NCBI GenBank assembly: GCA_964572855.1
Contig: CAZNGF010000004.1
Coordinates: 3,497 to 67,496 of the forward strand
DNA from: an uncultured Thermotogae bacterium
GTDB lineage: Bacteria; Bipolaricaulota; Bipolaricaulia; RBG-16-55-9; JAJCYT01
Reading direction: 5' to 3'
Length of the DNA stretch: 64,000 nucleotides
The notes under the pieces were generated by a model. The model was not told where the DNA came from, searched no databases, and saw only the letters and a program-made list of their open reading frames with translations. Both the position numbers and the translations under genes were made by a program. Numbering within the stretch: the first letter of the stretch is position 1; each line of letters starts with the position of its first letter. Shown here one piece after another: positions 10,915-38,015 of this stretch.

Positions 10915-12897
10915 GTGACGCGCGCCGTTCACCCGCTCTTGGCCGGCCTCAACCCCGTGCAGCGCGAGGCCGTGGAGCACGTTGAGGGCCCGCTGCTCAT
11001 CTTCGCGGGCGCGGGCAGCGGCAAGACCCGCGTCATCACGCACCGCATCGCCTACCTGATGGGCCATCACGGCGTGCCCGCGCGCGAGATCCTGGGGGTG
11101 ACCTTCACCAACAAGGCCGCCGGCGAGATGCTCGAGCGCATCGGCGCGCTCGTCGGCCCGGGCGAGACGCCCTGGATCCGGACCTTCCACGCCACCTGCG
11201 CGCGCTGGCTGCGCGACGACATCGACAAGCTCTCGCCGCACTACGACGGGCGCTTCACGATCCTGGACGCGGCCGAGTCGCGCGCGCTGCTGACCGGGGT
11301 GCTCAAGGAGCTCGACGTCCCCAGCGACGAGTTCAAGCCCGCCGTGCTGGCCTCCCTCATCGACCGGGCCAAGGACCACCTGGTCGGGCCTGAAACGTTC
11401 TCCGCGGCCTACGCCGACGCGCTCGATTCCTACGTGCTCGAGGTCGTCTCAAGCGCCTACAAGCGTTACCAGCGCAAGCTCGAGCGGGGCAACTGCCTGG
11501 ACTTCGCCGACCTGATCCGCCTGACCGTGGGGCTGTTCGAGGCGTTTCCGGAGGTGCTCGACCGCTACCGGCGGCGCTACCGCTTCATGCTGGTGGACGA
11601 GTACCAGGACACCAACGTGGCCCAGTACGTCTTCACGCGCCTGCTGGCCGGCGAACACCAGAACCTGTGCGCCGTGGGCGACGACGACCAGGCCATCTTC
11701 ACCTGGCGCGGGGCCGACCCCGGCAACCTGTTCAGCCTGGAGCGGGACTTCCCCGGCATCAAGGTGGTCACGCTCGGGAAGAACTACCGCTGCGGCGGGC
11801 ACATCCTGCACGCGGCCAGCGGCGTGATCCTGCACAACAGCCGGCGCAAGGACAAGCAGCTCGAGGCCGCGCGCGACCGGGGCGAGCCCGTGCGCTGGTA
11901 CGCGGCCGGCACGCAGGAGGACGAGGCCAACTTCGTCTGCAGCACGATCGACCGGCTGCACCACGAGCGCGGCGTCCCGCTCAAGGGCGTGGCCGTGCTC
12001 TACCGCGTCAACACGCTCTCGCGCGCGCTGGAGGACGCGCTCATCCGCTGGCGCCTCCCCTACGAGGTCGTGCGCGGCCTGCGCTTCTACGAGCGGCTCG
12101 AGGTCAAGGACCTGATGGCCTACCTCAAGCTCGCCGTCAACCCGCACGACGAGGCCAGCCTGCTACGCGTGATCAACCGCCCGCGGCGCGGGATCGGGGC
12201 CAAGACGCTGGCCGCCGTCCAGGCCGCCTCGCGCGCCGCGGGCGGTTCGCTCTGGGATGCGCTCTACCGGGTTACGGCCGACCCCGGCGGCGCGGGCCTG
12301 GGCGCGGGGGCCGCCAAGAAACTGCAGGGCTTTCTGGACCTGATGGAGGGCCTGCGGGCGCGGGCGGGGCACGAGCCCCCCAGCGCCGTGGCGCGCGCGA
12401 CGTTGCGCGAGACCGACTACGTCGGCGAGCTCGAGCGCAGCGACCCGGCGGCCGAGGAGCGCGCCGGCAACCTGCAGGAGCTGATCGGCCAACTGGAGTC
12501 CTACGAGGCCGCGGGCGGGTCGGACTTGTTGGGTTTCCTGGAGGAGACCGCGCTGGTTTCGGACGCCGACCACTACGACGGCGAGCAGGACCGCGTTGCG
12601 CTGCTCACGCTGCACGCGGCCAAGGGTCTGGAGTTCGACGTCGTGTTCATCGTCGGCGTGGAGGAGAACCTGTTGCCCCACAGCCGCGCGGTGCGTGAGG
12701 GCTCGCTGGAGGAGGAGCGCCGGCTCTGCTACGTCGGGATGACGCGCGCCAAGGAGCGCTTGTACCTCACCTGGGCCACCCAGCGCCTGCTCTACGGCTC
12801 GAGCCAGTTCAACCCGCCCTCGCGCTTCCTCTGGGAGATCCCCGGCGAAGACCTGGACGCCCAGCTGCCCGCCCCGCCCCGCACGCCGGCCTGGTAA
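10915..12897 (+). CDS. uvrD: ATP-dependent DNA helicase, UvrD/PcrA family
   Basis: 660 aa; motifs Q (NPVQREAV), I (AGAGSGKTRV), Ia (TFTNKAAGEM), II (DEYQDTN), VI; GTG start 14 nt after upstream stop. Confidence 0.9.
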   Translation: MTRAVHPLLAGLNPVQREAVEHVEGPLLIFAGAGSGKTRVITHRIAYLMGHHGVPAREILGVTFTNKAAGEMLERIGALVGPGETPWIRTFHATCARWLRDDIDKLSPHYDGRFTILDAAESRALLTGVLKELDVPSDEFKPAVLASLIDRAKDHLVGPETFSAAYADALDSYVLEVVSSAYKRYQRKLERGNCLDFADLIRLTVGLFEAFPEVLDRYRRRYRFMLVDEYQDTNVAQYVFTRLLAGEHQNLCAVGDDDQAIFTWRGADPGNLFSLERDFPGIKVVTLGKNYRCGGHILHAASGVILHNSRRKDKQLEAARDRGEPVRWYAAGTQEDEANFVCSTIDRLHHERGVPLKGVAVLYRVNTLSRALEDALIRWRLPYEVVRGLRFYERLEVKDLMAYLKLAVNPHDEASLLRVINRPRRGIGAKTLAAVQAASRAAGGSLWDALYRVTADPGGAGLGAGAAKKLQGFLDLMEGLRARAGHEPPSAVARATLRETDYVGELERSDPAAEERAGNLQELIGQLESYEAAGGSDLLGFLEETALVSDADHYDGEQDRVALLTLHAAKGLEFDVVFIVGVEENLLPHSRAVREGSLEEERRLCYVGMTRAKERLYLTWATQRLLYGSSQFNPPSRFLWEIPGEDLDAQLPAPPRTPAW

Positions 12898-15501: not shown

Positions 15502-16689
15502 TTATACCGGTAACGTCAGACTGCCGAGGTCGCGAGGGTAGTAGGTGAGCCGCTCGCAGCCGTCCTCGGTGATCAGCACGGTGTCGGAGTGCCGGAACCC
15601 GCCCAGCTCGGGCACGTAGAGGCCGGGCTCGACCGAGAAGAGCATGCCCGGTTCCATCAGCGTGTGGTCGCCGACATCGAGGAAGGGTCCCTCGTGGTAG
15701 CGCAGGCCCAGGCCGTGGCCGGTGTGATGGCGCCAGTGGGGCATGAGGTCGTTCTTCTCGAAGTAGCGCCGCACGGCCTGGTCGACCTCGGAGCACGGAT
15801 CGCCGGGCCGCATGGCGGCAAACGCGGCGTCCTGCAGGGCGAACATGTGGTCGAAGCAGCGTTTCTGCTCGTCGGAGGGTGGCCCCATGACCATGGTGCG
15901 CTCCAACTCGGAGATGTAGCCCCACACGGGCGCGGTGGCTCCCGTGACCAGCACGTCGCCCGGCTGAAAGGTGAGGTTGTTGGCCAGCGCGTGCGGCACG
16001 GCCGAGGTGCGGCCGATTTGCCCGCGGTAGAGCGCCAGCGCTCCGGAGAAAAATTTGCTCTGCGAGCGGAACACCGGGCCGATAGCATCCATCATGGCCA
16101 GCGTGGCCTCGCTGCTGGCCCGCGCGCTCACCTCGGACTCGCTGCGGCCCACCTCCGTGTAGCGCTGCAGCAGCGTGTGCGCCAGGTTGCCCCAGGTGAC
16201 GCTCTCGCGCACGAGCGCGATCTCGGGCGCGCTCTTCACGGCCATCTGCGCCTCCACCGCCGCCGTGACGCGGTGAAACGTGCCGCCCGTCAGCTCGGAG
16301 AGCCGCGGGCCGCGGTAGCCGAAGATCCAGGGGTAGCCATCCTCGTCGGCCCCGAACGCGCCCTGAATGTCCAGATCCTGCAGCGTGCGCTTGAACCGTT
16401 CCATCGGGTGCGGGTCGTCCGGGTACTCGGCGTAGGGGTCCACGCGGTCCACCAGCGCGAGGGATTGGGCGTGCTCCAGTTCCAGGCGCGGGACGAACAG
16501 CGCGCTCTGGCCGCGCGCGTTTAGGACGAAGGCGACGGGGCGCTCGGTGGGGAAGAAGGCGAAGCCCGTGTAGTAAAGAACGTATTGGCTGTCGAACAGG
16601 ACCGCGCCCGATAGCCCCTCGGCCTCGAGGTGCGCCCGCAGCCGCTCGACGCGCGCTCGGTACTCGGTTGGCGGGATGTGCAGGCTCAT
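15502..16689 (-). CDS. M24 family hydrolase (creatinase/Xaa-Pro peptidase fold; ectoine-hydrolase-like)
   Basis: 395 aa from MSLHIPPTEY with GGAG SD; creatinase_N-like N-terminus and M24 metal ligands (H...D...HHTGHGLGL...E...E). Confidence 0.8.
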   Translation of the reverse strand: MSLHIPPTEYRARVERLRAHLEAEGLSGAVLFDSQYVLYYTGFAFFPTERPVAFVLNARGQSALFVPRLELEHAQSLALVDRVDPYAEYPDDPHPMERFKRTLQDLDIQGAFGADEDGYPWIFGYRGPRLSELTGGTFHRVTAAVEAQMAVKSAPEIALVRESVTWGNLAHTLLQRYTEVGRSESEVSARASSEATLAMMDAIGPVFRSQSKFFSGALALYRGQIGRTSAVPHALANNLTFQPGDVLVTGATAPVWGYISELERTMVMGPPSDEQKRCFDHMFALQDAAFAAMRPGDPCSEVDQAVRRYFEKNDLMPHWRHHTGHGLGLRYHEGPFLDVGDHTLMEPGMLFSVEPGLYVPELGGFRHSDTVLITEDGCERLTYYPRDLGSLTLPV

Positions 16690-17366
16690 GAGCGGGCTCC
16701 GATCTCGGCGACCACGGTGTCGGTGTCGCGGCAGTTGCAAAACGCGTGGTCCAGGTTCGTGATGGCGGCCCGATGCAGCTCCGGCGTGACGGCCGCGCAG
16801 GCGTCGGGCACCATGATGACGTTGTAGCCCAGGTCGCTGGCGTCGCGCACGCTGCCCTCGACGCAGCCGTTGGTCACGACGCCGCAGACCAAGAGCGTGT
16901 CGACGCCCAGGTTGCGCAGCAGTTGGTTGATGTGGGTCGAATTGAACGGGCTTGACGAGGTCTTCGAGAGCACGATGTCGTCGTCCGTCGGCGCGATTTC
17001 CTCCAGGATCTCGGCGTCCTTGGCGTCGCGCGGCACGGCCAGGTTCACGTAGCGGTGCTGCCGGCCCGCGTCGCGCGCGTCGGGCGTTTGCGTTGCGATC
17101 CGGGTGTAAATGACGTTCATGCCCGCCTCGCGGGCCGCCTCGAGCAAGCGCTGCTGGTTGGGTATCGCCGTGGCAACCGCCTCCCAGTAGTACTCGAACA
17201 CCTCGGCTACGCCGGCCGCCTTGGCCTTGGCACCCATGGCGTGGTCGGGGTGGGCATCCAGATACTGCATGTCCACCACCAACAAGGCGGTTCGTGCGGG
17301 CGTGATTTCAAAGTACGGCAACTGCGGGAACACCAGCGTGAGTCGGTTTTCGGGGGTGTCGGGCAT
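16686..17366 (-). CDS. isochorismatase-family cysteine hydrolase
   Basis: 226 aa from MPDTPENR with AAGGAGG SD; conserved D...K...C triad context (LVVDMQ, VCGVVTNGCV); 4-nt overlap with downstream M24 gene. Confidence 0.8.
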   Translation of the reverse strand: MPDTPENRLTLVFPQLPYFEITPARTALLVVDMQYLDAHPDHAMGAKAKAAGVAEVFEYYWEAVATAIPNQQRLLEAAREAGMNVIYTRIATQTPDARDAGRQHRYVNLAVPRDAKDAEILEEIAPTDDDIVLSKTSSSPFNSTHINQLLRNLGVDTLLVCGVVTNGCVEGSVRDASDLGYNVIMVPDACAAVTPELHRAAITNLDHAFCNCRDTDTVVAEIGARS

Positions 17367-17376
17367 GGGAACCTCC

Positions 17377-18687
17377 TTAGAGCGCCGCGATCGCCTGCAA
17401 TCCATGGCGGCAGGCGTCGCTCAATTCGTCCAGAATGGGCTCGTCGTGCGCCAGCGAGATGGCGTGGTGCGAGAGCGGGTTGGCCATCACCAGGAAGCCG
17501 CGCTCGGCCAGGGCGGCGTTGAAGGCCGCGTAGGCCTTCCGGTCGGTGGCGCTGGCGCTGCGGTAGTCCGCGATCGTTTCATCGGTGAAGTACCAGTGCA
17601 GGTGCCCCCCCGCGCCGACCAGTTGCGCCGGCACGCCCCACTGCGTTGCGTCTCGCTGGAAAGCCTCTTTCAAGCGGTCGGAGCGCGCGTCGAGCGTCCG
17701 CTGCGCCGAGCCGTCCCGCAGCAACGGGAGGGTCGCCAGCGCGGCGGCCAGCGGGACGGCGTGGCCGTTGAACGTGCCCACGAAGGCGGGTCCCCGGCCC
17801 GGCTCGGTCAAACGCATGAACGCCTCGCGGCCCGCGAGCGCGGCCATCGGGAAGCCGTTGGCCAGCGCTTTCCCATACGTGGCCAGGTCTGGAACGATTC
17901 CATAGGCTTCCTGCGCGCCGCCGGGGGCCAGCCGGAAGCCCGTGAGCAGCTCGTCGAAGATGAGCACGATCCCGTGGCGGGTGCAGAGGTCGCGCAACGC
18001 CTGTAGATACGCCGTCGTCGCCGCGATGTAGCCCACGTCGATGAGCACGGGCTCCAGGATCACCGCGGCCAGCTCGGCGGCGTGGCGCTCGATGAGGGCG
18101 GCCGTGTGCGCCACGTCGTTGAACGGCAACACGAGCGTGCTCTGCGCCAGCGCGGGGTGCAGCCCCGGCGAGCCCGGCAGCGGGACGGGGGCGTCCGGCG
18201 ACCCGTTCTTGGTCATGTCCGGCCAGCAGCTCACGAACAGCTCGTCGGTCCAGCCGTGGTACGACCCCTCGACCTTGGCCACGCGCGCCCTGCCGGTGTG
18301 GTGGCGGGCCACGTGCAGCGCGTGTGTGACGGCCTCGGTTCCCGTGTTGGTGAAGCGCACCAGCTCCATCGTCGGCACGAGCTTCAAGAACAACTCGGCC
18401 AACTCGACCGAGCGCTCCCACTCGACGCCCGCGCTCAGGCCGGCGTCCAGGACCGCGCGCACCGCGTCGTTGACGCGGGCGTCCCCGTGGCCCAGCAGCA
18501 CAGCCCCGTTGCCCATGATCAGGTCGACGTAGCGGTTCCCGTCGGCGTCCCAGGCTTCAGCGCCCCGGGCGCGCTCGAAGTAGAGCGGGTGGGGCGCGCG
18601 CGCCCGCGTGCCGGAGTGGACGCCCGAGGGGACGGCGCGGTAGGCGCGTTGGTAGAGGGCGGCGGATCGTTCAGTGTTTCTTGTCAT
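17377..18687 (-). CDS. class-III pyridoxal-phosphate aminotransferase (glutamate-1-semialdehyde aminomutase-like)
   Basis: 436 aa from MTRNTERS with AGGAG SD; HemL-like blocks (VPSGVHSG, DADGNRYVDL, GTFNGH); N-terminal 350 aa of listed ORF is spurious. Confidence 0.85.
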   Translation of the reverse strand: MTRNTERSAALYQRAYRAVPSGVHSGTRARAPHPLYFERARGAEAWDADGNRYVDLIMGNGAVLLGHGDARVNDAVRAVLDAGLSAGVEWERSVELAELFLKLVPTMELVRFTNTGTEAVTHALHVARHHTGRARVAKVEGSYHGWTDELFVSCWPDMTKNGSPDAPVPLPGSPGLHPALAQSTLVLPFNDVAHTAALIERHAAELAAVILEPVLIDVGYIAATTAYLQALRDLCTRHGIVLIFDELLTGFRLAPGGAQEAYGIVPDLATYGKALANGFPMAALAGREAFMRLTEPGRGPAFVGTFNGHAVPLAAALATLPLLRDGSAQRTLDARSDRLKEAFQRDATQWGVPAQLVGAGGHLHWYFTDETIADYRSASATDRKAYAAFNAALAERGFLVMANPLSHHAISLAHDEPILDELSDACRHGLQAIAAL

Positions 18688-18712
18688 TGTGCTCCTCGTT
18701 GAGTCGTGGTCC

Positions 18713-18740
18713 GTAGGGGCGCACGGCCGTGCGCCCCTAC
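18713..18740. repeat. perfect 28-bp GC-rich palindrome GTAGGGGCGCACGGCCGTGCGCCCCTAC (REP-like/terminator hairpin family)
   Basis: between AstE/AspA gene stop and aminotransferase start; same arm sequence recurs at 5 other sites. Confidence 0.6.
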
Positions 18741-18788
18741 ACCCGATTGCTCCCTTCTCTCCCGAGGGAGCGGGGGAAACGTTCGGCG

Positions 18789-19709
18789 TCACGCGTCCAG
18801 GTTCCCGACCATGTAGCCGTAGGCGCCGGCTGCAACGACGTCGGTCGTCAGGTGCGAGAGCACCATGAGCCCGCGCTCGAACGGGCTGCGGATCACCTCG
18901 AGCTCCTCGAGCGTGTACGGGCTCAGCACGCGGCCCAGGACCGCACCCCCGCTGATCGCCTCCCCCAGCGGCGGCGCTTCGGTGTAGAGCATCCCGCCGG
19001 CGTGCGGGCGAATGGTGGCGATCTCGTTCAGCACGATTTGCTCCGGCGGCGGGGCGGGCTCGCCGTCCAGCACGCCGGCGGCCTGGAGGAAGTTGAGCGT
19101 GCCCGCCACGCCGCGCTCGACGTAGGGGCGCTGGTCCACGCGCCCGCCGCCCAGCTCGACCACGACGCTGGGGACGCCCCGTTCTTGCGCCACCCCCACC
19201 GAGGTGTGCTTGAGCAGCTCCAGCACCTCGGGCGGCGGGACGTGCAGCACCTTGGAGCCGAAGCTGCGGGAGAGCCGCTCGTCGTTGAAGATGTAGACGT
19301 AGTCCACCGTCTGCGATTCGCCGCCCGCGTGGAAGTCCAAGAGAAAATCGATCCTTTGCAGGAAGTGCTCGTTGACCTTGGCGGCGAGCTGCTCGGTGAG
19401 CCAGCCGTCGGGGTCGCCGGGGAAGACGTGGTTGAGGTTGAGGCCGTCCAGCGGCGTGAAGCGGCTCAGCGCTTCCAGGGTGTGCGGGTTGGCCACGGGC
19501 AGCAGCAGCAGGCGGCCGCGGAAGTCCCCGTCGGCCAGCTGCCGGGCCACCTCCATCACGATGCGCGTGCCCGTGGACTCGTCGCCGTGGATGCCCGCGC
19601 TCAGGCCCACCGTGGGGCCCGGGCCGCGCTTGCCGACCAGCTCGTGCAGGTGCAAGCAGAGCGTGCCGCCGCTGGCCAGCGGCGAAACTGGGATCGCCCG
19701 GACGCTCAC
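18789..19709 (-). CDS. succinylglutamate desuccinylase/aspartoacylase (AstE/AspA) family deacylase, copy 1
   Basis: 306 aa; HGDE and FHAGG zinc-ligand blocks of the AstE_AspA family. Confidence 0.8.
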   Translation of the reverse strand: MSVRAIPVSPLASGGTLCLHLHELVGKRGPGPTVGLSAGIHGDESTGTRIVMEVARQLADGDFRGRLLLLPVANPHTLEALSRFTPLDGLNLNHVFPGDPDGWLTEQLAAKVNEHFLQRIDFLLDFHAGGESQTVDYVYIFNDERLSRSFGSKVLHVPPPEVLELLKHTSVGVAQERGVPSVVVELGGGRVDQRPYVERGVAGTLNFLQAAGVLDGEPAPPPEQIVLNEIATIRPHAGGMLYTEAPPLGEAISGGAVLGRVLSPYTLEELEVIRSPFERGLMVLSHLTTDVVAAGAYGYMVGNLDA

Positions 19710-20647
19710 GCTTGCCCCCCTTCGGCCGAATCGAGGTTGCCAATCATGTAGCCGTAGCAGCCTGGGTCGATCACGTCATCCGTGAGGTGGGACAGCACCA
19801 TGATCCCGCGTTCGAACGGGTTGCGGATCACCTCGAGCTCCTCGAAGGTGTACGGGCTCACGACGCGGCCCAGCACGGCGTCGCCGGAGACCTCCTCGCC
19901 CAGTGGCGGGGCTGCGCCGACGAGCAAGCCCCCGGCGTGCGGCCGGAGGATCGCGATCTCGTTGAGCACGACCTGCGCCGGCGGCGGGGCCGGTTCGTCG
20001 TCGACCAGGCCCAGCTCGGCCAGCACGTTGACCGCGCCGCGCACGCCGCGCTCGACGTAGGGGCGCTGGTCCACGCGCCCGCCGCCCAGCTCGACCACGA
20101 CGGTGGGGGCGTCCCGCGCGACCGTGACCCCGCCGGAGACGCCCTCGTAGGCGGTGCCCGAGACCCCCTCCTTCGGCCGATAGAGCACGGGGGAGCCAAA
20201 GCTCCTGGAGAGCGTTTCGGCGTTGAGGATGTAGATGTAATCGACGGTCTGGCCGGCTCCGCCGGCGTGGAAGTCCAGGTAGACGTCGATCCTTTGCAAG
20301 AACTCCCGGTGGATGACGCACGCCAGCTGCTCGCTGAACCAGCCGTCGGGGTCGCCGGGGAAGAGGCGGTTGAGGTTGAGAGCGTCCAGCGGCGTGTGGC
20401 GCGCGTTGGCCTCGAAGCCGAGCGGGTTGGCCACCGGCAACAGCAGCAGCCGGCCGCGGAAGTTTCCCCCCGCGTAGCGCCGGGCGAGTTCCAGCAGGAT
20501 CTGCGTTCCCGTCGGCTCGTCGCCGTGGATGGCGGCGCTCATGCCGACGGTGGGGCCGTCCCCCAGCGCCCCGCGGAGCTCGATCACGTGCAGGTCGATC
20601 TGGGTCCCGTTGGCCAAGGTCGCAACGGGGTATCGGTTCACGTTCAT
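19706..20647 (-). CDS. AstE/AspA family deacylase, copy 2 (tandem paralog)
   Basis: 313 aa; long identical stretches with copy 1 (LLLLPVANP, VVVELGGGRVDQRPYVERGV, MVLSHLT); stop/start overlap with copy 1. Confidence 0.8.
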   Translation of the reverse strand: MNVNRYPVATLANGTQIDLHVIELRGALGDGPTVGMSAAIHGDEPTGTQILLELARRYAGGNFRGRLLLLPVANPLGFEANARHTPLDALNLNRLFPGDPDGWFSEQLACVIHREFLQRIDVYLDFHAGGAGQTVDYIYILNAETLSRSFGSPVLYRPKEGVSGTAYEGVSGGVTVARDAPTVVVELGGGRVDQRPYVERGVRGAVNVLAELGLVDDEPAPPPAQVVLNEIAILRPHAGGLLVGAAPPLGEEVSGDAVLGRVVSPYTFEELEVIRNPFERGIMVLSHLTDDVIDPGCYGYMIGNLDSAEGGQA

Positions 20648-20678
20648 GGTGATGCCTCCGTTTCTCGTGTTTGCGCCG

Positions 20679-21503
20679 CTAGCGTTGCACCATTCCCCGC
20701 GGGTCCAGTTCGTCGCGCAGGCCGTCGCCCAGCAGGTTGAACCCCAGCACGGTCAACATGATCGCAAAGCCCGGCACGATCGACAGGTGCGGCGCGTTGC
20801 GCAGGAACCGCATGCCGTAGGACATGGTCCAGCCCCAGCTCGGGTCGGGCGGCTGCACGCCGAAACCCAGGAAGCTGAGCGCCGACTCGGCGATGATGGC
20901 CGTCCCCAACCCCAGCGTGGCCAGCACGACCATGGGGCCGAGGCTGTTGGGCAGGATGTGGCGCAGCAGGATGCGGGTATCCGACGCGCCCAGCGAGCGG
21001 GCCGCCTGGACGTAGTCGCGTTCGCGCTCGGACAGCGCCATGGAACGGGCGACGCGCGCGTACTGGGTCCAGAACACCGCGATGAGCGCGATCACGACGT
21101 TGACCGGCCCGGGGCCGAGCACGGCGATCAGCGCCAGCGCCAGGATGATCACGGGGAAACCTAGGAAGATGTCCACCACGCGCATGAGCAGCATGTCCAC
21201 CCAGCCGCCGAAGAACCCCGAGGTCAAGCCGATCCACGTCCCAAGCACGGAGGCCACCCCCACCGACACCAGCGCGATCAGGAGCGAGAGGCGCGTGCCG
21301 TGGGCCATGCGCGTCCAGAGGTCGCGCCCGAAGTTGTCGGTGCCGAGCCAGTGCTCCGGGCCGGGCGGTCGCAGCCGGCTGGCCATGTCCATCTCCTCGG
21401 GGCCGACGCCGGCCAGCAGCGGGCCGAAGGCGGCGATCAGCACCAGCCCCGCCACGATCAGCGCCCCGGCGGCCATGGACCAGCGTCGTCTGAGCATGCG
21501 CAT
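20679..21503 (-). CDS. ABC transporter permease (DppC/OppC-like)
   Basis: 275 aa from MRMLRRR with GGAGG SD 9 nt after upstream stop; six TMS, EAA-like loop. Confidence 0.8.
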   Translation of the reverse strand: MRMLRRRWSMAAGALIVAGLVLIAAFGPLLAGVGPEEMDMASRLRPPGPEHWLGTDNFGRDLWTRMAHGTRLSLLIALVSVGVASVLGTWIGLTSGFFGGWVDMLLMRVVDIFLGFPVIILALALIAVLGPGPVNVVIALIAVFWTQYARVARSMALSERERDYVQAARSLGASDTRILLRHILPNSLGPMVVLATLGLGTAIIAESALSFLGFGVQPPDPSWGWTMSYGMRFLRNAPHLSIVPGFAIMLTVLGFNLLGDGLRDELDPRGMVQR

Positions 21504-21511
21504 GGGCCCTC

Positions 21512-22492
21512 CTACTCCAGCCGGATGCGGGGGTCGATGATCCCGTAGAGCACGTCCACGGTCAGGTTGATGAGCGAAAAGGCAAACGCGATGATCAACA
21601 CCGTCCCCTGCACCAGCGGGATGTCGCGCTGGCCGATGGCGGTGATGGCCAGCTGGCCGATGCCCGGCCAGCCGAAGATGAACTCGGTCAGCACCGCGCC
21701 GCCCAGCAGCACGCCGAACTGCAGCCCCAGCACGCTGACCACGGCGAGCAAGGAGTTGCGAAACGCGTGCCGGACGATGACCAGCCACGGCACCAACCCC
21801 TTGGCCCGCGCGGTGCGGACGTAGTCCTCACCCAGCACGTCCAGCAGCGACGAGCGCTGAATGCGGCTAATGATGGCCGCGCCGTTGAGTCCCAGGGTGA
21901 GGGCGGGCAACAGCAGGTGTTGCAGGCTGTCGAGCAGGACCTCGGGCTTGCCCCGAAACAGCGCGCCGAACGCCTCGACCAGCGGCTCCCCGCGGCCGAT
22001 CGAGGGCAGCCAGTCGAGCTGCACCGCGAACCAGAGCATGAACAAAATGCCCAGCCAGAAGACGGGAATCGACACCCCCAGTTGCGCGAACAGCATGCTG
22101 ACCAGGTCGATCAGCGTCCCGCGGCGCACGGCCGCGATCAACCCCAGCGGGATCCCGACGAAGGTCGAGATGAACAAGGCGGCCACCGCCAGCTCGACGG
22201 TGGCCGGCAGGTGGCCGAACACGATCCGACCCACGGGCGCGCGCTGAAAGATCGATTGGCCCAGATCGCCTTGCAGCAGGCGGCCGATGTACTTGGCCAG
22301 CTGCACCGGCAGCGGTTGGTCCGTGCCCAGCACGCGGCGCATGTCGGCCACGGTCTCCGGGGTGGCATCGGTGCCCAACAGGGCCACGGCCGGATCCCCG
22401 GGAATGACCTGCAGCAGCCCGAACACGATCACGACGATGCCGAACATGGTGGGGATCAGCAGCAACAGGCGGCGCGCGATGTAGCTCGTCAC
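21512..22492 (-). CDS. ABC transporter permease (DppB/OppB-like)
   Basis: 326 aa; N-terminal MTSYIARRLLLLIPTMFGIVVIVF typical of DppB. Confidence 0.85.
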   Translation of the reverse strand: MTSYIARRLLLLIPTMFGIVVIVFGLLQVIPGDPAVALLGTDATPETVADMRRVLGTDQPLPVQLAKYIGRLLQGDLGQSIFQRAPVGRIVFGHLPATVELAVAALFISTFVGIPLGLIAAVRRGTLIDLVSMLFAQLGVSIPVFWLGILFMLWFAVQLDWLPSIGRGEPLVEAFGALFRGKPEVLLDSLQHLLLPALTLGLNGAAIISRIQRSSLLDVLGEDYVRTARAKGLVPWLVIVRHAFRNSLLAVVSVLGLQFGVLLGGAVLTEFIFGWPGIGQLAITAIGQRDIPLVQGTVLIIAFAFSLINLTVDVLYGIIDPRIRLE

Positions 22493-22592
22493 CGGGGCGC
22501 CTCCGTACCGCGGGGATGGAGCCGCCGAGGGGACGGGGGAAGGCTGTCCCCTCGGCGGATGCGGCTAGCGCGTGAAGGTTCCAGCTTGCGGT

Positions 22593-24146
22593 TCATTCAC
22601 CCAGGGAGGCCCTGGCCAGACTGCGCAGGTTCCCGCGCGCGTCGGCTTCGAACCCCTGCAACGCGGGGGTGCGGAACTGGTGGAATCCCTGGTACTGCAG
22701 CACGAAGTAGGGAACCTCGTCGGCGATGATGCGGGCGGCTTCGCGGTAGGCTTCGGTGCGCGCCTCCAAGGTGAGCGCGGTGCGGCCCGCCTCCAAGGCG
22801 GCGTCCACGTCGGGGTTGCTGTAGTTCCCCCAGTTGGAGGTGCCCTCCGAGTGGAGCTGGTTGAACATCGCGCGATCCGGGTCCACCAGGTTGAGCCAGC
22901 CGATCAGCATGAGCTGGTAGTCGCCCGCCAGGATCTCGGTCAAGAGCGAGTTGAACGGCTGGATGTTGATCTCGACCTCGATCCCGCTCTGGCGGAACAC
23001 GGTCTGGAGGAACTCCACGGTCTGTACGCGGTTGGGGTCCTCGACGTGGGTCTTGAACACGAACGAGAACTTCTCTCCATCTTTGTCAAGGATGCCGTCC
23101 CCATCTGAGTCGGTCCAACCTTCCTGGGCCAACAGCGCCAGCGCGCCGTCCACGTCCTGCGTGGGCTGCCGGATGTCGGGCGTGAACGGGAAGTGGTTCG
23201 GCAGCAGGATCGAGCTGGCCGGGATGTCGATCCCTTCGTAGATCGACTCCACGATCACGTCTTGGGGCACCAGCATCGACACGGCCTTGCGCACGTTCGG
23301 GTTCTGGAACAGCTCGAATTCGGTCTGGAAGTTGAGGTACGTGTAGCCGAAGCCGGCCGTGACGGTCGCATCGAAGCGGTCGTCGTTGGCCAGCCGGTTG
23401 ATGTCCTGCGGCGACAGCGGCGTCTGGATCAGGTCCAGGTCGCCGGCCTCCAATGCCTGGGCGCGCGACGTGTTGTCGGGCACGACCACGATTTCGAGGT
23501 TCTTGATGGCGGGCTCGCCGCCCCACCAGTCGGGGTTGGCCTCGAGCACGATCCGGCTGTTCTTGTCCCAGCGCACCAGGCGGAACGGGCCGCTGCCGAC
23601 GGGGTCGTTGGCCAGGTCCCCGCCCGCCTCGACCACGTGCTGCGGGACGATGCCCTTGTCCATGAAGCTGAGCAGGGGCGCAAACGGCTGCGCGGTCAGG
23701 AAGCGCACCGTGAACTCGTCCACGGCCTCGACCGTGGTGATCGGCGTGTACAGACCGCGCTGCGGCGCGCCGAAGTCGGGGTCGAGGATGGCCTCGAAGG
23801 TGGCCACCACGTCGGCGCTGGTGACGGGCTCCCCGTCGTGGAAGACGGCATCGTCTCTCAGGTTGAAGATCCAGGTGGTCGGATCCGGCTGTTCCCACGA
23901 CGTGGCCAGGCTGGGCGTGGGCACCAGCGTGCTCGGGTCCAGCTCGACGAGCCCGTCGAAGATGAGGTCGGTCACGCGGAAACCGGTGGTGTTCTGCGTC
24001 AAACGCGGGTCGAGGTTGTCCGCGTCCACGTCCATGCCCACGCGCAACACGGGCTCGGACTGGGCTTGGGCCGTTCCGCTCCAGTTGCTCGTGGTCATGC
24101 CGAGCGCCAACACGGCGATCAACAACATGGCGAATGCTTTTTTCAT
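22593..24146 (-). CDS. ABC transporter substrate-binding protein, family 5 (peptide/nickel/opine type)
   Basis: 517 aa from MKKAFAMLL with GGAGAAAGGA SD; signal peptide; SBP_bac_5 blocks. Confidence 0.85.
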   Translation of the reverse strand: MKKAFAMLLIAVLALGMTTSNWSGTAQAQSEPVLRVGMDVDADNLDPRLTQNTTGFRVTDLIFDGLVELDPSTLVPTPSLATSWEQPDPTTWIFNLRDDAVFHDGEPVTSADVVATFEAILDPDFGAPQRGLYTPITTVEAVDEFTVRFLTAQPFAPLLSFMDKGIVPQHVVEAGGDLANDPVGSGPFRLVRWDKNSRIVLEANPDWWGGEPAIKNLEIVVVPDNTSRAQALEAGDLDLIQTPLSPQDINRLANDDRFDATVTAGFGYTYLNFQTEFELFQNPNVRKAVSMLVPQDVIVESIYEGIDIPASSILLPNHFPFTPDIRQPTQDVDGALALLAQEGWTDSDGDGILDKDGEKFSFVFKTHVEDPNRVQTVEFLQTVFRQSGIEVEINIQPFNSLLTEILAGDYQLMLIGWLNLVDPDRAMFNQLHSEGTSNWGNYSNPDVDAALEAGRTALTLEARTEAYREAARIIADEVPYFVLQYQGFHQFRTPALQGFEADARGNLRSLARASLGE

Positions 24147-24330
24147 GACAGTCCTTTCTCCCATCCAATTCCTGAGCGATGCGTCGCCAAACGCGACCCT
24201 CCAACCACAACCAGGTGCTTGCCCGTGCGCAGCCCGGTTGGGGTACCACCACGGCCTACAAAGGGGAACACCACCTCCTTGATCTGTTTTCGCTGACCCG
24301 CGCAGCCGACGGCGTCGGCCGTTGGCGGGG

Positions 24331-24894
24331 TTACTGCTGACCCGAGTTCAGCCCGACGATCGGGGGACTCACCACGTACAAAATCAGCACGGGCGAATCG
24401 CCTTCGTTTCGTTCCGTGTGGGGGAGGTTGGAGGTGAAGTGGAAGCTCTCCCCCTCTTGCAGCTCGTATTCTTTGTCCTTGACCGTCAGGGACAATTTGC
24501 CCTTCAAGATGTAGCCGAACTCCTCGCCCGCGTGCGAAAACAGGCGCGGGCCTTCGTAGCCGGGGGGGTATTCGACCAGGAGCGGCTCGAGCGTGCGCTC
24601 CTTGAAGGGATTGCTAAGCAGGCCATAGCGCACGGCCGAGTCGTCGAACTCGATCCACTGGGCCTCGCCGGCGTGGACGATGCTGGAGACGTTGTCGGGC
24701 AGCGGGAAGAAGTGCTGGATCGGTTCGCCCAGCGCCTCGGCGATCACCTTGAGCGAGGCCAGCGAGATCGAGGTCTGGCCGCGCTCGGCCTGGGACAGAA
24801 AGCTCACCGACAGCCCCGTGTCCCGGCCCAGCTTCTCCAGGGACCACTTGCGCTGTTTGCGCAGCTTGCGGATGTACTTGCCGACGTCGTCCAT
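24331..24894 (-). CDS. XRE-family HTH regulator with C-terminal cupin domain (PuuR-like architecture)
   Basis: HTH_3 (IRKLRKQRKWSLEKLGRDTGLSVSFLSQAERG) plus cupin_2 (EFGYILKGKL...ESFHF); ATG at MDDVGKY nearly leaderless relative to the promoter. Confidence 0.8.
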   Translation of the reverse strand: MDDVGKYIRKLRKQRKWSLEKLGRDTGLSVSFLSQAERGQTSISLASLKVIAEALGEPIQHFFPLPDNVSSIVHAGEAQWIEFDDSAVRYGLLSNPFKERTLEPLLVEYPPGYEGPRLFSHAGEEFGYILKGKLSLTVKDKEYELQEGESFHFTSNLPHTERNEGDSPVLILYVVSPPIVGLNSGQQ

Positions 24895-24904
24895 AGTAAA
24901 TTTC

Positions 24905-24933
24905 ACTATAGCTGAAATTTTTCAGTGAGTCAA
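24905..24933 (-). promoter_or_regulatory. promoter TTGACT-17-TATAGT of the XRE-cupin gene with perfect palindrome CTGAAATTTTTCAG filling the spacer
   Basis: read on minus strand; palindrome at ~24912-24925. Confidence 0.55.
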
Positions 24934-26142
24934 TATCTCGCTCACCGATCTGCTATACTGAGGCCCGCCGGGCTGCAAACGCACACGAATCCGGTGAGCC
25001 CCAACGTCGAGGTGAACACGGTGAGCACACCCCCCCTTGAAGCATCGACCTTCGAGCGCCGCACGGGCGCGTGCCAGGAGCGGATGCGAACGCAGGGCGT
25101 CGATCTGCTGATCTTGACGCCCGGCCCGAACATGCGTTACCTGACGGGCTTCGACGAAGCCCCGTCCGAACGGTTGCTGAGCCTACTCGTGCCCGCCGCG
25201 GGCGCGCCGACATTTCTTGTCCCGGCCATGTACGAAGACCACGTCAGGCGGGACGCGTGGGTGCGAGATATCCGCGCATGGCCGGACGGAGAGAACCCGA
25301 TGCGCGTCCTGGCGCGTGTGGTGTCGGAGCTGGCGGCGCATCCGAAGCGCGTGGCCGTCGACGACCGTGCCTGGGCGCTCGTGCTCCTGCCGTTGCGCGA
25401 GGTGCTGGATGGGCGCATGGTCTTGGCGTCGACGTTGCTGTCCTCCATGCGGATGCGCAAGGACGCGGGCGAGCTGGCGCTGCTGCGGCGTGCGGCCGAG
25501 ATCGCGGACCAGGCCTTCGAGTGGATCTGCGCGCAGCCGTTCGAGGGCCAAAGCGAGCGCGCGATCGCCGACATGCTGGAACGTCGCATGCAAGCGCTGG
25601 GCGGCGAGGGCCCGGCGTTCAGGACGCTGGTGGCCTCGGGCCCCAACGGCGCGCTGCCGCACCACAGCGCCGGCGGCCGGGTGATCGCGCGCGGCGACGC
25701 CGTGATCCTGGACTTCGGCTGCCGGCTCGGGGGGTACCACTCCGACCTGACGCGCACCGTGGTCTGCGGCGAGCCCTCGGAGGAATGCAAGCGCGTCCAC
25801 GAACTGGTCAAGCGCGCCCAGGCGACGGGCACGGCCGCCTGCCGTCCGGGCGCGACGGCCGAGTCGGTCGACCGGGCGACGCGCGACGTAATCGCGCACG
25901 CGAGCTATGGAGAGCGTTTCATCCACCGCACGGGCCACGGCCTGGGCCTGGAGCCGCACGAGCCGCCCTACCTCGTCGCCGGCGACGCCACGCCGCTTGC
26001 GCCGGGCCTGACCTTCTCGGTCGAGCCGGGCGTGTATCTGCCGGGGAAGTTCGGCGTCCGCATCGAGGACATCGTGGCGGTCACCCCCGACGGCGTCGAG
26101 CCGCTCAACCGCTGCACGCACGAACTCCGGATCGTGGGTTGA
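24925..26142 (+). CDS. M24 family hydrolase (Xaa-Pro dipeptidase/creatinase-like), second copy; true start probably an internal GTG near 25010
   Basis: HxxxD...HRTGHGLGLEPHE...E...E metal ligands; listed GTG start lies inside the divergent promoter. Confidence 0.8.
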   Translation: MSQYLAHRSAILRPAGLQTHTNPVSPNVEVNTVSTPPLEASTFERRTGACQERMRTQGVDLLILTPGPNMRYLTGFDEAPSERLLSLLVPAAGAPTFLVPAMYEDHVRRDAWVRDIRAWPDGENPMRVLARVVSELAAHPKRVAVDDRAWALVLLPLREVLDGRMVLASTLLSSMRMRKDAGELALLRRAAEIADQAFEWICAQPFEGQSERAIADMLERRMQALGGEGPAFRTLVASGPNGALPHHSAGGRVIARGDAVILDFGCRLGGYHSDLTRTVVCGEPSEECKRVHELVKRAQATGTAACRPGATAESVDRATRDVIAHASYGERFIHRTGHGLGLEPHEPPYLVAGDATPLAPGLTFSVEPGVYLPGKFGVRIEDIVAVTPDGVEPLNRCTHELRIVG

Positions 26143-27685: not shown

Positions 27686-27715
27686 CGTAGGGGCGCAGCA
27701 TGCTGTGCCCCTACG
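27686..27715. repeat. GC-rich hairpin CGTAGGGGCGC...GCCCCTACG (REP-like family member; probable ppdK terminator)
   Basis: 9-bp stem with GTAGGGGC arms 30 nt 3' of ppdK stop. Confidence 0.45.
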
Positions 27716-27743: not shown

Positions 27744-30407
27744 TTAGACGTCGTGTACCCCGCCCTCGAGCGCGGCCTGGGCGGCGGCCAGGCGGGCGAC
27801 GGGGACGCGGAAGGGCGAGCAACTCACGTAGTCGAGTCCGAGCTGGTGGCAGAGGTGGATCGAGGCCGGGTCGCCGCCGTGCTCGCCGCAGATGCCCAGC
27901 TCGATGTCGGGGCGCGTCTTGCGCCCGCGCTCGACCGCGATGCGCATCAAATCACCCACGCCGCGGGCGTCCAGCGAGCGGAACGGGTCGGCGAACACGC
28001 CCGTTTGCTCGTAGTAGCGCAAAAACTTCTCCTCGGCGTCGTCGCGGCTGATGCCGTAGGTCGTCTGGGTGAGGTCGTTGGTCCCGAAGGAGAAGAACTC
28101 GGCCCGCTCGGCCAGCTCGTCGGCCACCAGGCAGGCGCGCGGCAGCTCGATCATCGTGCCCCACAGGTACTTGACCCGGCCGCCGCAGTCGTCCATGACC
28201 TCGTCGGCCACGGCCTCGAGCCGGTCGCACACCCGGTTCAGCTCGCCGGCGTCCGACACGAGCGGGATCATGATCTCGGGCCGGGGGTCGAGGCCCTCCT
28301 GGCTCAACTCGCAGGCCGCGGTCATGAGCGCGCGCACCTGCATCTCGACGATCTCGGGGTAGCGCAGCCCCAGCCGCACGCCGCGCAGGCCCAGCATCGG
28401 GTTGGCCTCGCGCAGTTCGCCCACGGTCTCGAGCATCGTCTCCTTCTCGGCCAGCACCTCCGGGTCGTCGCCCTTGGCCCGCAGCTCGGCCACCTCGGCC
28501 AGCAGGTCCTCGTAGCGCGGCAGAAACTCGTGCAGCGGCGGGTCGATGAGCCGCACGATCACGGGCAGGCCGCTCATCTCGCGCAATAACCCCTTGAAGT
28601 CCTCCTTCTGGAACGGGAGCAGCTGGTCGAGCGCGGCTTTGCGCTCCTCGGTCGAGCGCGACAGGATCATTTTCTGCACGATCGGCAGGCGTTCGGACTC
28701 GAAGAACATGTGCTCGGTGCGGCAGAGCCCGATGCCCTCGGCGCCGAAGGCGTGGGCCCGCCGGGCGTCGCGCGGGTAGTCCGCGTTGGCCCGCACGCCC
28801 AGCGTGCGGAACTCGTCCGCCCACTCCAACAGGCGCGCGAACTCGGCCTCGTCCTCCAGCTTCGGCGTCTGGGTGGGCAGCCCGCCCAGGTAGACCCGGC
28901 CCGTGGTCCCGTCCAGCGAGATGACGTCGCCCTCGCCCACGGTCTGCCCGTCGGCCGTGAAGCGCTTGGCCTTGAGGTCGATGTGCAGGTCCTCGCAGCC
29001 CACCACGGCCGGGATCCCCAGGCCGCGCGAGACCACGGCCGCGTGCGAGGTCATGCCGCCGCGCTGGGTCAGGATGCCCTGCGACTGCAGGAAGCCGTGC
29101 ACGTCGTCGGGCGTGGTCTCGGGGCGCACCAGGATGACGGCCTCGCCGGCCTTGCCGCGCGCCTCGGCGGTGTCGGCGTCGAAGACGGCCTGGCCCACGG
29201 CCGCGCCGGGCGAGGCGTTCAGGCCCTCGGCCAGCAGCTCGGCTCCGGAGAGCGCCTCGGAATCAAAGCGCGGGTGTAGCAGCCGTTCGACCTGTTGGGG
29301 ATCGACCTGGAGCACGGCCTCCTCGCGCGTGATGAGCCCCTCGTCGGCCATCTCGACCGCGACCTTCATGGCCGCCTTGCTGGTGCGCTTGCCCTTGCGG
29401 GTCTGCAGCATCCAGAGCGTGCCGTGTTGGATCGTGAACTCGACGTCCTGCATGTCGTGGTAGTGGTCCTCGAGCTTGGCGGCGATCTCGAGCAACTGGT
29501 CGTAGGCTTCCGGAAAATCCTCTCTCAGCTTCTGGATCGGCTGGGGCGTGCGGCTGCCCGAGACCACGTCCTCGCCCTGGGCGTTGACCAGGTACTCGCC
29601 GTAAAAGACCTTTTCGCCCGTGGCCGGGTTGCGCGTGAAGGCCACGCCGCTGGCCGATTTCTCCCCCAGGTTGCCAAACACCATGGCCTGGACGTTGACC
29701 CCGGTGCCCAGGTCGTGCGGGATGCCGTGGTGGACGCGGTAGTCGGTGGCGCGTTTGGTGTTCCAGGACTTGAACACGGCCTCGATCGAGCGCCGCAGTT
29801 GCTCCTCCGGGTCCTGGGGGAACGCCTCGCCCGCTTCCCGTGCGACGATGGCCTTGAACGTCTCGACCACGCCCTTGAGCGCCTCGGCCGAGAGCTCGGC
29901 GTCCGAGCCGACGCCCTCGCGCGCGCGCGCCGCCGAGAGCGCCTCCTCGAAGCGCTCTCCCTCCACGCCCAGCACGACGTCGCCGAACATCTGGATCAGC
30001 CGGCGGTAGGCGTCGAAGGCGAAGTGCTCGTCGTCCGACTGGGCGATGAGGCCACGGACGGTCTCGTCGTTCAGGCCCAGGTCGAGCACGGTGTCCATCA
30101 TGCCGGGCATCGACATGCGCGCGCCCGAGCGCACCGAGAGCAACAGCGGGTTCTCGACGTCGCCGAAGCGCTTGCCCAGCGCCTCCTCGACCCCGGCCAG
30201 CGCCGCGCGCGTCTGGTCCCAGAGCCCCTCGGGAAAGCCCTCGCCCCCCTCGTAGTAGGCGATGCACGCCTCGGTCGTGATCGTGAAGCCCGGCGGGACG
30301 GGCAGCCCGATGCGGGTCATCTCGGCCAGCCCCGCCCCCTTGCCGCCCAGCAGGTCGCGCTGGGCTTCCGAGCCCTGTTCGAACCGATACACCCACTGCT
30401 TGCTCAT
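27744..30407 (-). CDS. ppdK: pyruvate, phosphate dikinase
   Basis: about 887 aa from MSKQWVYRFEQG with GGAGGACGG SD; PEP-utilizing blocks (GGMTSHAAVVSRGLGIP, GICGEHGGDP); 5' 636 nt of listed ORF is spurious. Confidence 0.9.
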   Translation of the reverse strand: MSKQWVYRFEQGSEAQRDLLGGKGAGLAEMTRIGLPVPPGFTITTEACIAYYEGGEGFPEGLWDQTRAALAGVEEALGKRFGDVENPLLLSVRSGARMSMPGMMDTVLDLGLNDETVRGLIAQSDDEHFAFDAYRRLIQMFGDVVLGVEGERFEEALSAARAREGVGSDAELSAEALKGVVETFKAIVAREAGEAFPQDPEEQLRRSIEAVFKSWNTKRATDYRVHHGIPHDLGTGVNVQAMVFGNLGEKSASGVAFTRNPATGEKVFYGEYLVNAQGEDVVSGSRTPQPIQKLREDFPEAYDQLLEIAAKLEDHYHDMQDVEFTIQHGTLWMLQTRKGKRTSKAAMKVAVEMADEGLITREEAVLQVDPQQVERLLHPRFDSEALSGAELLAEGLNASPGAAVGQAVFDADTAEARGKAGEAVILVRPETTPDDVHGFLQSQGILTQRGGMTSHAAVVSRGLGIPAVVGCEDLHIDLKAKRFTADGQTVGEGDVISLDGTTGRVYLGGLPTQTPKLEDEAEFARLLEWADEFRTLGVRANADYPRDARRAHAFGAEGIGLCRTEHMFFESERLPIVQKMILSRSTEERKAALDQLLPFQKEDFKGLLREMSGLPVIVRLIDPPLHEFLPRYEDLLAEVAELRAKGDDPEVLAEKETMLETVGELREANPMLGLRGVRLGLRYPEIVEMQVRALMTAACELSQEGLDPRPEIMIPLVSDAGELNRVCDRLEAVADEVMDDCGGRVKYLWGTMIELPRACLVADELAERAEFFSFGTNDLTQTTYGISRDDAEEKFLRYYEQTGVFADPFRSLDARGVGDLMRIAVERGRKTRPDIELGICGEHGGDPASIHLCHQLGLDYVSCSPFRVPVARLAAAQAALEGGVHDV

Positions 30408-38003: not shown

Positions 38004-38015
38004 TCCTCTCCTAAA

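Follow-up and report, generated by a model that had tools for sequence, protein, structure and literature searches.

A probable importer-plus-hydrolase operon, conserved across bacterial phyla, whose proteins fall in uncharacterised branches of four superfamilies

What does the gene cluster at positions 15502-26142 of this stretch of DNA take up, and what do its enzymes do with the cargo? The stretch, called the window below, is a piece of 64,000 nucleotides (64 kb) of contig CAZNGF010000004.1 (GenBank assembly GCA_964572855.1) from an uncultured bacterium of the Bipolaricaulota. A first-pass annotation had described the cluster as a ten-gene catabolic module made up of an XRE-cupin regulator, a family-5 ATP-binding cassette (ABC) importer, two AstE/AspA-type deacylases, a class-III aminotransferase, an isochorismatase-like hydrolase and two M24 hydrolases. 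Our Pfam scan agreed with this content: ten open reading frames (ORFs) were found, all with the named domains above gathering score. Nine of them form a minus-strand array from 24894 to 15502; the second M24 gene (M24-2) is a plus-strand gene divergent from that of the regulator, as the annotation had it.

Our analysis points to a substrate-specific importer-plus-hydrolase operon that is conserved across phyla and whose proteins belong to four known superfamilies, in branches not yet characterised. On our best reading, the locus is a substrate-inducible operon for taking up and breaking down a small amino-acid conjugate, N-acylated or isopeptide-linked, with an additional nitrogen of amino, amidino or amide type; it would not be a system for ordinary dipeptides, ectoine, creatinine or nickel. 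We give a probability of about 0.55 to a regulated system that imports an N-blocked amino-acid conjugate bearing an amine and then hydrolyses and deaminates it step by step. None of the cluster's enzymes reached an equivalog cut-off of NCBIfam in our hidden Markov model (HMM) searches, and no description of the gene combination was found in literature searches. The earlier remark that no described pathway matches the combination therefore stands.

A transporter and deacylase unit shared by many genomes

For the locus survey, one genome per species was taken, which gave 80 loci, and these were compared with the window proteins by tblastn. The genes for the solute-binding protein (SBP), the two permeases and the deacylase form a tetrad (SBP5-PermB-PermC-deacylase) on one strand in 45 of 63 loci whose upstream sequence was long enough to be informative. 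The tetrad proteins are 40-70% identical overall (SBP 39-58%; permeases 50-71%, the DppC-like permease 50-74%), and their hosts belong to the Alpha-, Beta- and Gammaproteobacteria (Pseudomonadota), Gemmatimonadota, Armatimonadota, Bacillota and Chloroflexota. For the count of partners, 35 tetrad loci extended far enough downstream. The aminotransferase (43-69% identity) was found in 21 of these and DppD/F-type ATPases in 27, while eight have no ATPase gene, as in the window. This arrangement of genes is far beyond chance juxtaposition.

The closest long relative, locus L001 (deacylase 68% identical), runs in the window's own order, with regulator, SBP, two permeases, two deacylases, aminotransferase and isochorismatase-like gene, and has no M24 gene. 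In Bacillaceae the order is canonical M24, SBP, PermB, PermC, deacylase, DUF885-like protein, aminotransferase, two ATPases and non-canonical M24. A canonical M24 gene stands at the equivalent place in the Bacillaceae loci and in L049. Because the Bacillaceae loci share the end-to-end order of the window, both M24 genes are plausibly members of the module. The claim of a ten-gene unit thus holds in part: the tetrad recurs, but what is conserved is the transporter and the deacylase, with or without the aminotransferase, and not all ten genes.

Clustering of all neighbouring ORFs in the related loci showed which partners recur. M24 proteins were found in 20 loci, DUF885-like proteins and short-chain dehydrogenase/reductase (SDR) enzymes in 17 each, Amidohydro_1 proteins in 16, aldo-keto reductases (AKR) in 13 and amidase-signature enzymes in 11. 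The pool consists almost wholly of amide-bond hydrolases and SDR/AKR enzymes.

The DUF885-like partner is a protein of about 395 amino acids (aa) with an HE(C/S/A)(F/Y)PGH motif, encoded between the deacylase and aminotransferase genes in 17 related loci and absent from the window. Examples lie at L051:10919-12106, L052:10900-12099, L007:10953-12224, L075:4521-5720 and L078:10932-12128. No Pfam or NCBIfam model matched it above threshold; one copy gave a sub-threshold DUF885 match (22 bits). Probably it acts in the same pathway, as a metallohydrolase of a kind not yet characterised. The Rhizobiales and Devosia loci (L034, L036, L039, L040, L044, L047 and L062) have extra conserved genes upstream of the SBP gene, which encode proteins of about 210 aa and about 310-330 aa with no Pfam match and a GntR-like regulator of 372 aa; in these loci an aldo-keto reductase is present and the aminotransferase is missing. 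A search of plasmids found close homologues only on Neorhizobium chromids and no context of Ti/Ri opine catabolism, and an opine reading based on plasmid location was dropped for this reason.

The importer of the window consists of an SBP with a signal peptide (22593-24164, minus strand; PF00496, SBP_bac_5, 297.7 bits), a DppB/NikB-like permease (21512-22492, minus strand; BPD_transp_1 and BPD_transp_1_N) and a DppC/OppC/NikC-like permease (20679-21500, minus strand; BPD_transp_1 and OppC_N). The SBP scored 124 bits against a cut-off of 1005 on the DppA model, and the DppB-like permease 279 against 590 on the DppB model. The closest solved relatives of the SBP are, in order, 5u4o, the Ni-binding protein CcNikZ-II (8efz) and AppA (1xoc). 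No DppD/F-like or other ABC ATPase was found by tblastn (E<1e-5) anywhere in the 64-kb window, so the importer is incomplete here, and the earlier statement that the locus lacks ATPase genes extends to the whole window. Elsewhere, in dozens of species, the deacylase gene lies between the permease and ATPase genes. This position inside the transporter operon suggests that importer and deacylase share an organic substrate.

DppA binds the alpha-ammonium group of a peptide through D408 and the C-terminal carboxylate through R355. In an alignment of 54 sequences of the SBP family, compared with DppA at about 25% identity and anchored on the conserved GW..DPD motif, the D408 position is Asn in 36 and never Asp, and the R355 position (H373 in the window) is His in 52. 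The loss of the Asp fits a ligand with no free alpha-ammonium group.

The two deacylases are tandem paralogues, 65% identical to each other. Deacylase A (19706-20647, minus strand; 313 aa), whose gene is the marker of the tetrad, has more than 1,400 homologues, typically 57-68% identical to it; deacylase B lies at 18789-19709 on the minus strand (306 aa). With PF24827 scores of 84.2 (A) and 89.7 bits (B) against a gathering score of 25, both belong to the AstE/AspA superfamily. The zinc ligands and catalytic Glu (H41, E44, H127 and E186) are invariant in an alignment of 30 sequences that includes both paralogues, and deacylase B keeps every invariant residue of the family. The AstE model (TIGR03242) gave 22.5 bits against 305.65 and no ast genes were found in the window, which speaks against a place in the arginine succinyltransferase pathway; such a place, with ast genes elsewhere, was among the results that the first-pass annotation would have taken as refuting it. 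The DoeB model (TIGR02994) gave 93.2 (A) and 103.7 bits (B) against 402.7. An AlphaFold2 model of deacylase A, with a predicted local distance difference test (pLDDT) of 92, came closest to structures of the DoeB/EutE type (3na6, 6twm and 3cdx) at template modelling (TM) scores of 0.77-0.81 and 23-27% identity, followed by CphZ (TM about 0.72) and AstE (TM about 0.5). Judged from sequence and model together, these deacylases form a distinct branch adjoining DoeB. To our knowledge, the superfamily has four functions so far, those of AstE, AspA, DoeB and CphZ, and each of these enzymes frees the alpha-amine of an amino acid from an acyl group.

The class-III pyridoxal phosphate (PLP) enzyme (17377-18687, minus strand; 436 aa; PF00202, 201 bits) had been described as an omega-aminotransferase and compared with DoeD. 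It is HemL-like. The model of the glutamate-1-semialdehyde aminomutase (GSAM) subfamily gave 361.8 bits against 398 and that of hemL 338.8 against 527.3, both below cut-off, whereas the diaminobutyrate (DABA) aminotransferase model, of the DoeD/EctB type, gave 117.8 against 753. Compared with Synechococcus GSAM, the enzyme keeps S29, R32 and K273, its gating loop is 7 aa longer, and E406 is replaced by Ser. Among 30 cluster-associated orthologues, residue 406 is never Glu, His407 is invariant (30/30) and His408 is present in 27. By these residues the enzyme represents a subfamily of its own, marked by S406-His407-His408. Transaminases with beta, D and omega specificity are among its solved relatives, and it is probably an omega-type aminotransferase. 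A housekeeping HemL role was rejected on the loss of E406 and on genomic context, since the gene stands in a transporter and hydrolase operon with no heme genes.

What the cargo might be

These findings can be joined into a pathway whose order of steps we infer as follows. The SBP and the DppB/C-like permeases would import the compound, driven by ATPase subunits encoded elsewhere; supply in trans is suggested by the window, which has none, and by the eight tetrad loci in the same situation. The first step inside the cell would be deacylation, in which the two putative Zn-dependent, DoeB-like enzymes cut the bond between an N-acyl group and the alpha-amino nitrogen of a moiety with a free alpha-carboxylate. 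The fixed pairing of SBP and permeases with such a deacylase suggests that the cargo is an organic conjugate that needs acyl hydrolysis. The HemL-like enzyme would then take a primary, omega-type amino group off one of the products, and the frequency of its gene suggests that this product bears a primary amine with which general metabolism does not deal. An aldehyde product would fit the SDR and AKR partners of other lineages. The cysteine hydrolase, M24-1 and M24-2 would open further amide, carbamoyl or amidine bonds in the substrate or in related congeners, as probably would the lineage-variable DUF885-like protein, amidohydrolase and amidase. Finally, the XRE-cupin protein would sense substrate or product and repress the array, probably together with the divergently transcribed M24-2; repression would be autoregulated, relieved by the ligand and exerted at the conserved AT-rich promoter and palindrome.

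The first-pass annotation had thought of a cyclic or N-acylated amino compound, and such a substrate is plausible on the present evidence too. A bolder reading, which we hold to be less likely than not, is that the tetrad and its partners constitute an undescribed catabolic pathway, widespread in five phyla or more, whose substrate is an N-acylated or iso-linked conjugate of a basic amino acid that is common in the environment. Examples of such a cargo would be an N-acyl-diamino acid, a guanidino pseudo-dipeptide or a conjugate derived from an osmolyte or the cell wall. If this were true, it would bring new specificities for four enzymes, namely a new branch of AstE/AspA enzymes, a HemL-derived aminotransferase with Ser-His-His, a creatinase-like M24 protein that is not binuclear and a DUF885-like hydrolase, and with them a new class of ligands for family-5 binding proteins. 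Recycling of peptidoglycan peptides of the MpaA type was also considered and set aside, as no HMM search gave a signal of MpaA, LdcA or an epimerase.

Several points weigh against the uptake and breakdown of an N-blocked conjugate. Its substrate class would follow from superfamily chemistry alone, no member of the four subfamilies being characterised, and the comparison with DppA, although anchored, is a distant one. A canonical prolidase, a prolidase-like amidohydrolase and a DUF885-like protein fit the use of plain peptides equally well, and the permeases and the SBP score highest on nickel-transporter models. The accessory genes vary by lineage, so that the ten genes may serve more than one substrate, and M24-2 may have a housekeeping role as a peptidase and only happen to adjoin the operon. 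In addition, with two intergenic GC hairpins in the array, the nine minus-strand genes may not all be co-transcribed.

The strongest rival is ordinary scavenging of proline-containing di- and tripeptides by a Dpp-type importer, an M14-like carboxypeptidase and M24 prolidases, which we regard as unlikely, at odds of about four to one against. It draws on M24-2 (start at 24994, 25012 or 25021, end at 26142, plus strand; Peptidase_M24, 221 bits, and Creatinase_N), which has all five metal ligands (D-D-H-E-E) of an M24B prolidase or Xaa-Pro aminopeptidase and whose closest solved relatives are the Xaa-Pro aminopeptidases 4rgz and 4fkc (6e-80). The related loci add the DUF885-like putative metallopeptidase and the Amidohydro_1 protein, whose best model, that of a Caulobacter-type Xaa-Pro dipeptidase, gave 246 bits (cut-off 500), and the third-best solved relative of the SBP, AppA, is an oligopeptide binder. 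The SBP family, however, lacks the Asp that binds the free N-terminus of a peptide, and we know of no characterised enzyme of the AstE/AspA superfamily that cuts normal alpha-peptide bonds. A HemL-like aminotransferase, a cysteine amidase and a non-binuclear M24 protein would be superfluous for standard peptides, and the tetrad, at 40-70% identity across phyla, appears to be held together more tightly than peptide permease operons usually are.

A creatine/creatinine or other guanidino pathway, in which M24-1 would be a urea-releasing amidinohydrolase and the isochorismatase-like protein an N-carbamoyl-amino-acid amidase, seems to us quite improbable. M24-1 (15502-16689, minus strand; 395 aa; Peptidase_M24 and Creatinase_N), the final gene of the array, has G250, E261, H325, E354 and S368 where Pyrococcus furiosus prolidase has the ligands D209, D220, H284, E313 and E327, and thus lacks two of the five, at positions 1 and 5. 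The same pattern, [G/A/S/V]-E-H-E-[S/A], was found in its orthologues in nine other loci and is shared by more distant M24 genes in the rhizobial and Devosia loci. On these residues a binuclear centre cannot form. Creatinase, whose sequence was verified against 1CHM before comparison, binds the guanidinium group through E262, H324 and E358. The equivalents in M24-1 are E263 (in an ELERT motif), H325 and E354, and ligands 1 and 5 are likewise lost in creatinase, which is what recommends this reading. Against it, H376 of creatinase is Ser in M24-1 (Ser or Ala in the family), the R335 insertion is missing and there is an extra Glu at ligand position 2; E261, H325 and E354 are potential ligands of one metal, and M24-1 may be a mononuclear metalloenzyme. 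In similarity M24-1 stands closer to prolidases (2.5e-34) than to creatinase (4e-23), and M24-1-type genes occur in a minority of loci. The label of creatinase-type hydrolase, which had been given to both M24 proteins, fits M24-1 in part, through its creatinase-like glutamates, but not the canonical M24-2. The prospect that both might prove to be housekeeping proteins of the PepP/PepQ type was partly borne out, and for M24-2 only. Both M24 proteins missed the NCBIfam equivalog cut-offs (197 against 630; 193 against 393).

The cysteine hydrolase (16686-17366, minus strand; 226 aa; PF00857, 139.7 bits) bears on the same question. Its Asp-Lys-Cys triad is aligned with those of 6xix, of its C-to-S mutant 6xj4 and of 1nba, as expected of a PF00857 enzyme. 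Its closest solved relatives are the cysteine hydrolase 3irv, triuret hydrolase 6xix, N-carbamoylsarcosine amidase 1nba, biuret hydrolase and RutB, and with 84 bits against 378 for RutB and 83 against 370 for BiuH it was assigned to no specific member. N-carbamoylsarcosine amidase is thus among its relatives, with an aligned triad, which favours a guanidino pathway; but the enzyme appears somewhat closer to the uncharacterised, triuret and biuret hydrolases, and its gene was found in three loci only, those of the window, L001 and L063. The earlier assignment to the N-carbamoylsarcosine-amidase type was not sustained for these reasons. Sarcosine oxidase, creatininase and N-methylhydantoinase are absent as well.

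Still less probable is a module of the ectoine/hydroxyectoine type, in which an M24 protein would open the cyclic amidine, a DoeB-like enzyme would deacetylate the product and the aminotransferase would remove the gamma-amine. The deacylases are indeed nearest to DoeB/EutE in structure and sequence (TM 0.8, about 25% identity), M24-1 is no standard binuclear peptidase and an aminotransferase is present, so that the parallel drawn in the first-pass annotation holds as chemical logic. It fails as membership. The DoeA models (TIGR02993, cut-off 613 bits; NF038259, 575) gave 62.7 and 69.3 bits for M24-1 and 88.8 and 146 for M24-2, the DoeB scores lie at 93-104 against 403, and the aminotransferase is not of the DoeD/EctB type. 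The reference pair of DoeA and DoeB was taken from an annotated Sinorhizobium meliloti plasmid (ehu-eut cluster). At the five pita-bread positions this DoeA has E-P-Y-M-T, M24-1 has G-E-H-E-S and M24-2 has D-D-H-E-E; since M24-1 differs from DoeA at all five, it is not DoeA-like. Unlike the S. meliloti cluster, the locus has no EutABC, no transporter of the Ehu/Ueh type and no EnuR/AsnC regulator. No DoeC-type aldehyde dehydrogenase was found within 15 kb, and most related loci carry the deacylase without any M24 gene.

Least probable of all is uptake of nickel or a metallophore (Nik/Opp2/Cnt type) beside enzymes unrelated to transport: although nickel models are the top NCBIfam matches of all three transporter parts (Opp2C, 300.7 bits against 300, barely reached by the DppC-like permease; Opp2B, 312.6 against 350, for the DppB-like permease; nikA-type models, 173.1 against 393 and 182.5 against 600, for the SBP) and the second-best solved relative of the SBP, CcNikZ-II, binds Ni(II) (8efz; bioRxiv 10.1101/2022.10.03.510666), the SBP falls well short of the NikA cut-offs, its family alignment has YQGYQVF in place of the GHHG His-His prong that marks NikZ-type nickel binders (bioRxiv 10.1101/2022.10.03.510666), no nickel enzyme or NikR lies nearby, and the deacylase gene is fixed inside the transporter operon in dozens of species.

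Control region, gene spacing and surroundings

The regulator gene (24331-24894, minus strand), the first of the array, encodes XRE helix-turn-helix (HTH_3) and Cupin_2 domains in a PuuR-like architecture, with 73.7 bits against 211 on the PuuR model. Its orthologue in L001 is 62% identical and holds the same position. Between it and M24-2 lies a divergent control region (24895-24965), an AT-rich island in a genome of 69% GC. It contains a predicted sigma-70-like promoter for the regulator and array, TTGACT-17-TATAGT (24933-24905, minus strand; 10 of 12 matches), and the palindromes AAATTTCA-N7-TGAAATTT and TGAAAAATTTCA, which are a candidate operator. The same layout was found in L001 (5790-5845), with TTGACA-17-TATACT and a start codon about 10 nucleotides (nt) downstream. 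Window and L001 thus share a geometry of -35 element, 17-nt spacer with an A/T palindrome, -10 element and a start about 10 nt on. Such a short distance from the -10 element to the start codon suggests that the regulator mRNA is nearly leaderless.

On the other side, a start of M24-2 at 24925 was excluded because it would overlap the regulator promoter, and a GTG at 24994, 25012 or 25021 is more likely. The leader of M24-2 (24940-25026) contains the repeats GCTCACCG/CGGTGAGC.

An operon is favoured by a single strand, two 4-nt overlaps, gaps of 10-31 nt and one consensus promoter upstream of the regulator. Direct reading of the sequence confirmed the ATGA overlap reported between the stop of the isochorismatase-like gene and the start of M24-1 (16689-16686), and showed a second, GTGA, between the genes of deacylases A and B (19709-19706). 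The description of short gaps or overlaps throughout applies to these and to the gaps of 10-31 nt, but three others are wide: 166 nt between regulator and SBP, 100 nt between SBP and permease and 101 nt between deacylase B and aminotransferase. Exact matches in public collections were found for five of the gene models (395, 226, 436, 313 and 306 aa).

Two of the wide gaps hold hairpins. A 28-nt palindrome resembling repetitive extragenic palindromic (REP) elements, GTAGGGGCGC...GCCCCTAC, lies at 18713-18740 in the gap that separates deacylase B from the aminotransferase, and its fold has a GC stem of 12 bp (z = -2.9). The same type recurs at 27687-27714 and 49007-49034, making three copies against 0 expected by chance, and the copies at 18713-18740 and 27687-27714 are both intergenic. 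The former may be an intercistronic hairpin or a partial terminator. Directly downstream of the SBP gene, in the RNA fold of 22493-22592 (minus strand), is a perfect 13-bp GC stem-loop, CCGCCGAGGGGAC...GTCCCCTCGGCGG (22522-22558), with no U-tract after it. It may stabilise the mRNA or act as an attenuator, and so raise expression of the SBP over that of the permeases. Neither the Rfam scan nor the tRNA scan of the window gave a match, and consequently no riboswitch gives a clue to the ligand.

The flanking genes are unrelated. An ArsR gene and a major facilitator superfamily (MFS) gene stand at one end of the cluster; at the other are genes for a membrane protein, HSP20 and pyruvate phosphate dikinase (PPDK). 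The remainder of the window has unrelated housekeeping or other functions. The region 38000-41700, with an MFS transporter, a short WD40-repeat protein and a cNMP-binding protein, has 55-58% GC against about 69% and may have been acquired horizontally. An ORF at 30634-31773 (minus strand) fuses a gamma-glutamyl cyclotransferase-like (GGACT/AIG2) domain to one of the class-I O-methyltransferases. Since this ORF runs into the upstream part of the long PPDK frame (27744-31043), one of the two starts is probably mis-set. The PcrA/UvrD helicase at 10915-12897 (plus strand) has named relatives, 55-58% identical, in Candidatus Bipolaricaulota/Acetothermia and Fraserbacteria, and among genomes the deacylase finds its best match in a bin labelled Fraserbacteria. 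The window is therefore likely to derive from an uncultured organism of this lineage; a Chloroflexota host, which GC content and the relatives had suggested, was given up on the evidence of the helicase.

Significance and comparison with known systems

Conserved operons of an importer and enzymes usually mark a nutrient for which many microbes compete. This one occurs in cultured Bacillaceae, rhizobia and Devosia as well as in uncultured lineages, and its enzymes can be named only to superfamily level. To identify the ligand would give a proper annotation to more than 1,000 genes now listed as "predicted deacylase" and "glutamate-1-semialdehyde aminomutase", whose names are wrong or missing, add a function to the AstE/AspA superfamily and clarify a half-dismantled pita-bread metal site. 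The locus offers function discovery a solid target and overturns no current understanding.

Among known systems, the Doe/Eut pathways of Halomonas, Ruegeria and Sinorhizobium share with the window an M24-fold hydrolase, a Zn deacylase of the superfamily and a class-III aminotransferase. Their transporter is Ehu (family 3) or of the TRAP type and their regulator EnuR/AsnC, whereas the window has a family-5 importer and an XRE-cupin regulator. The family-5 importers Dpp, Ddp, Gsi and Nik likewise combine an SBP_bac_5 protein with DppB/DppC-type permeases, and the related loci have DppD/F ATPases with the oligo_HPY domain, as those systems do. The window and about a quarter of the related loci differ from them in having no ATPase genes; the window SBP has neither D408 and R355 of DppA nor the NikZ HH-prong, and an enzyme gene is fixed in the operon.

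The aminotransferase finds its best HMM and Protein Data Bank (PDB) matches in HemL and its transaminase relatives (those of beta-phenylalanine and D-phenylglycine, and GntE), with K273, R32 and S29 in common. From HemL it differs in its scores below the GSAM cut-offs, in Ser-His-His at E406 and in the longer gating loop. Creatinase (1CHM) shares the pita-bread fold and the Creatinase_N domain with M24-1; it has Ala at ligand position 2, where M24-1 has Glu, and M24-1 stands in no creatine-pathway context.

The nearest parallel to the proposed use of the deacylases is CphZ/AotO, a hydrolase of the beta-Asp-Arg cyanophycin dipeptide that belongs to the AstE/AspA superfamily (PMC9974463). It differs in sequence (16-18% identity, with matches in the N-terminal part only; TM about 0.72), its transporter AotJQMP is of the polar amino-acid type and not of family 5, and its operons have no aminotransferase or M24 gene. 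In CphZ operons, however, as in the window, the gene of a superfamily hydrolase lies inside an ABC importer operon, and CphZ splits an imported, non-standard, amide-linked conjugate of amino acids (PMC9974463), which is the role that we propose for the window deacylases.

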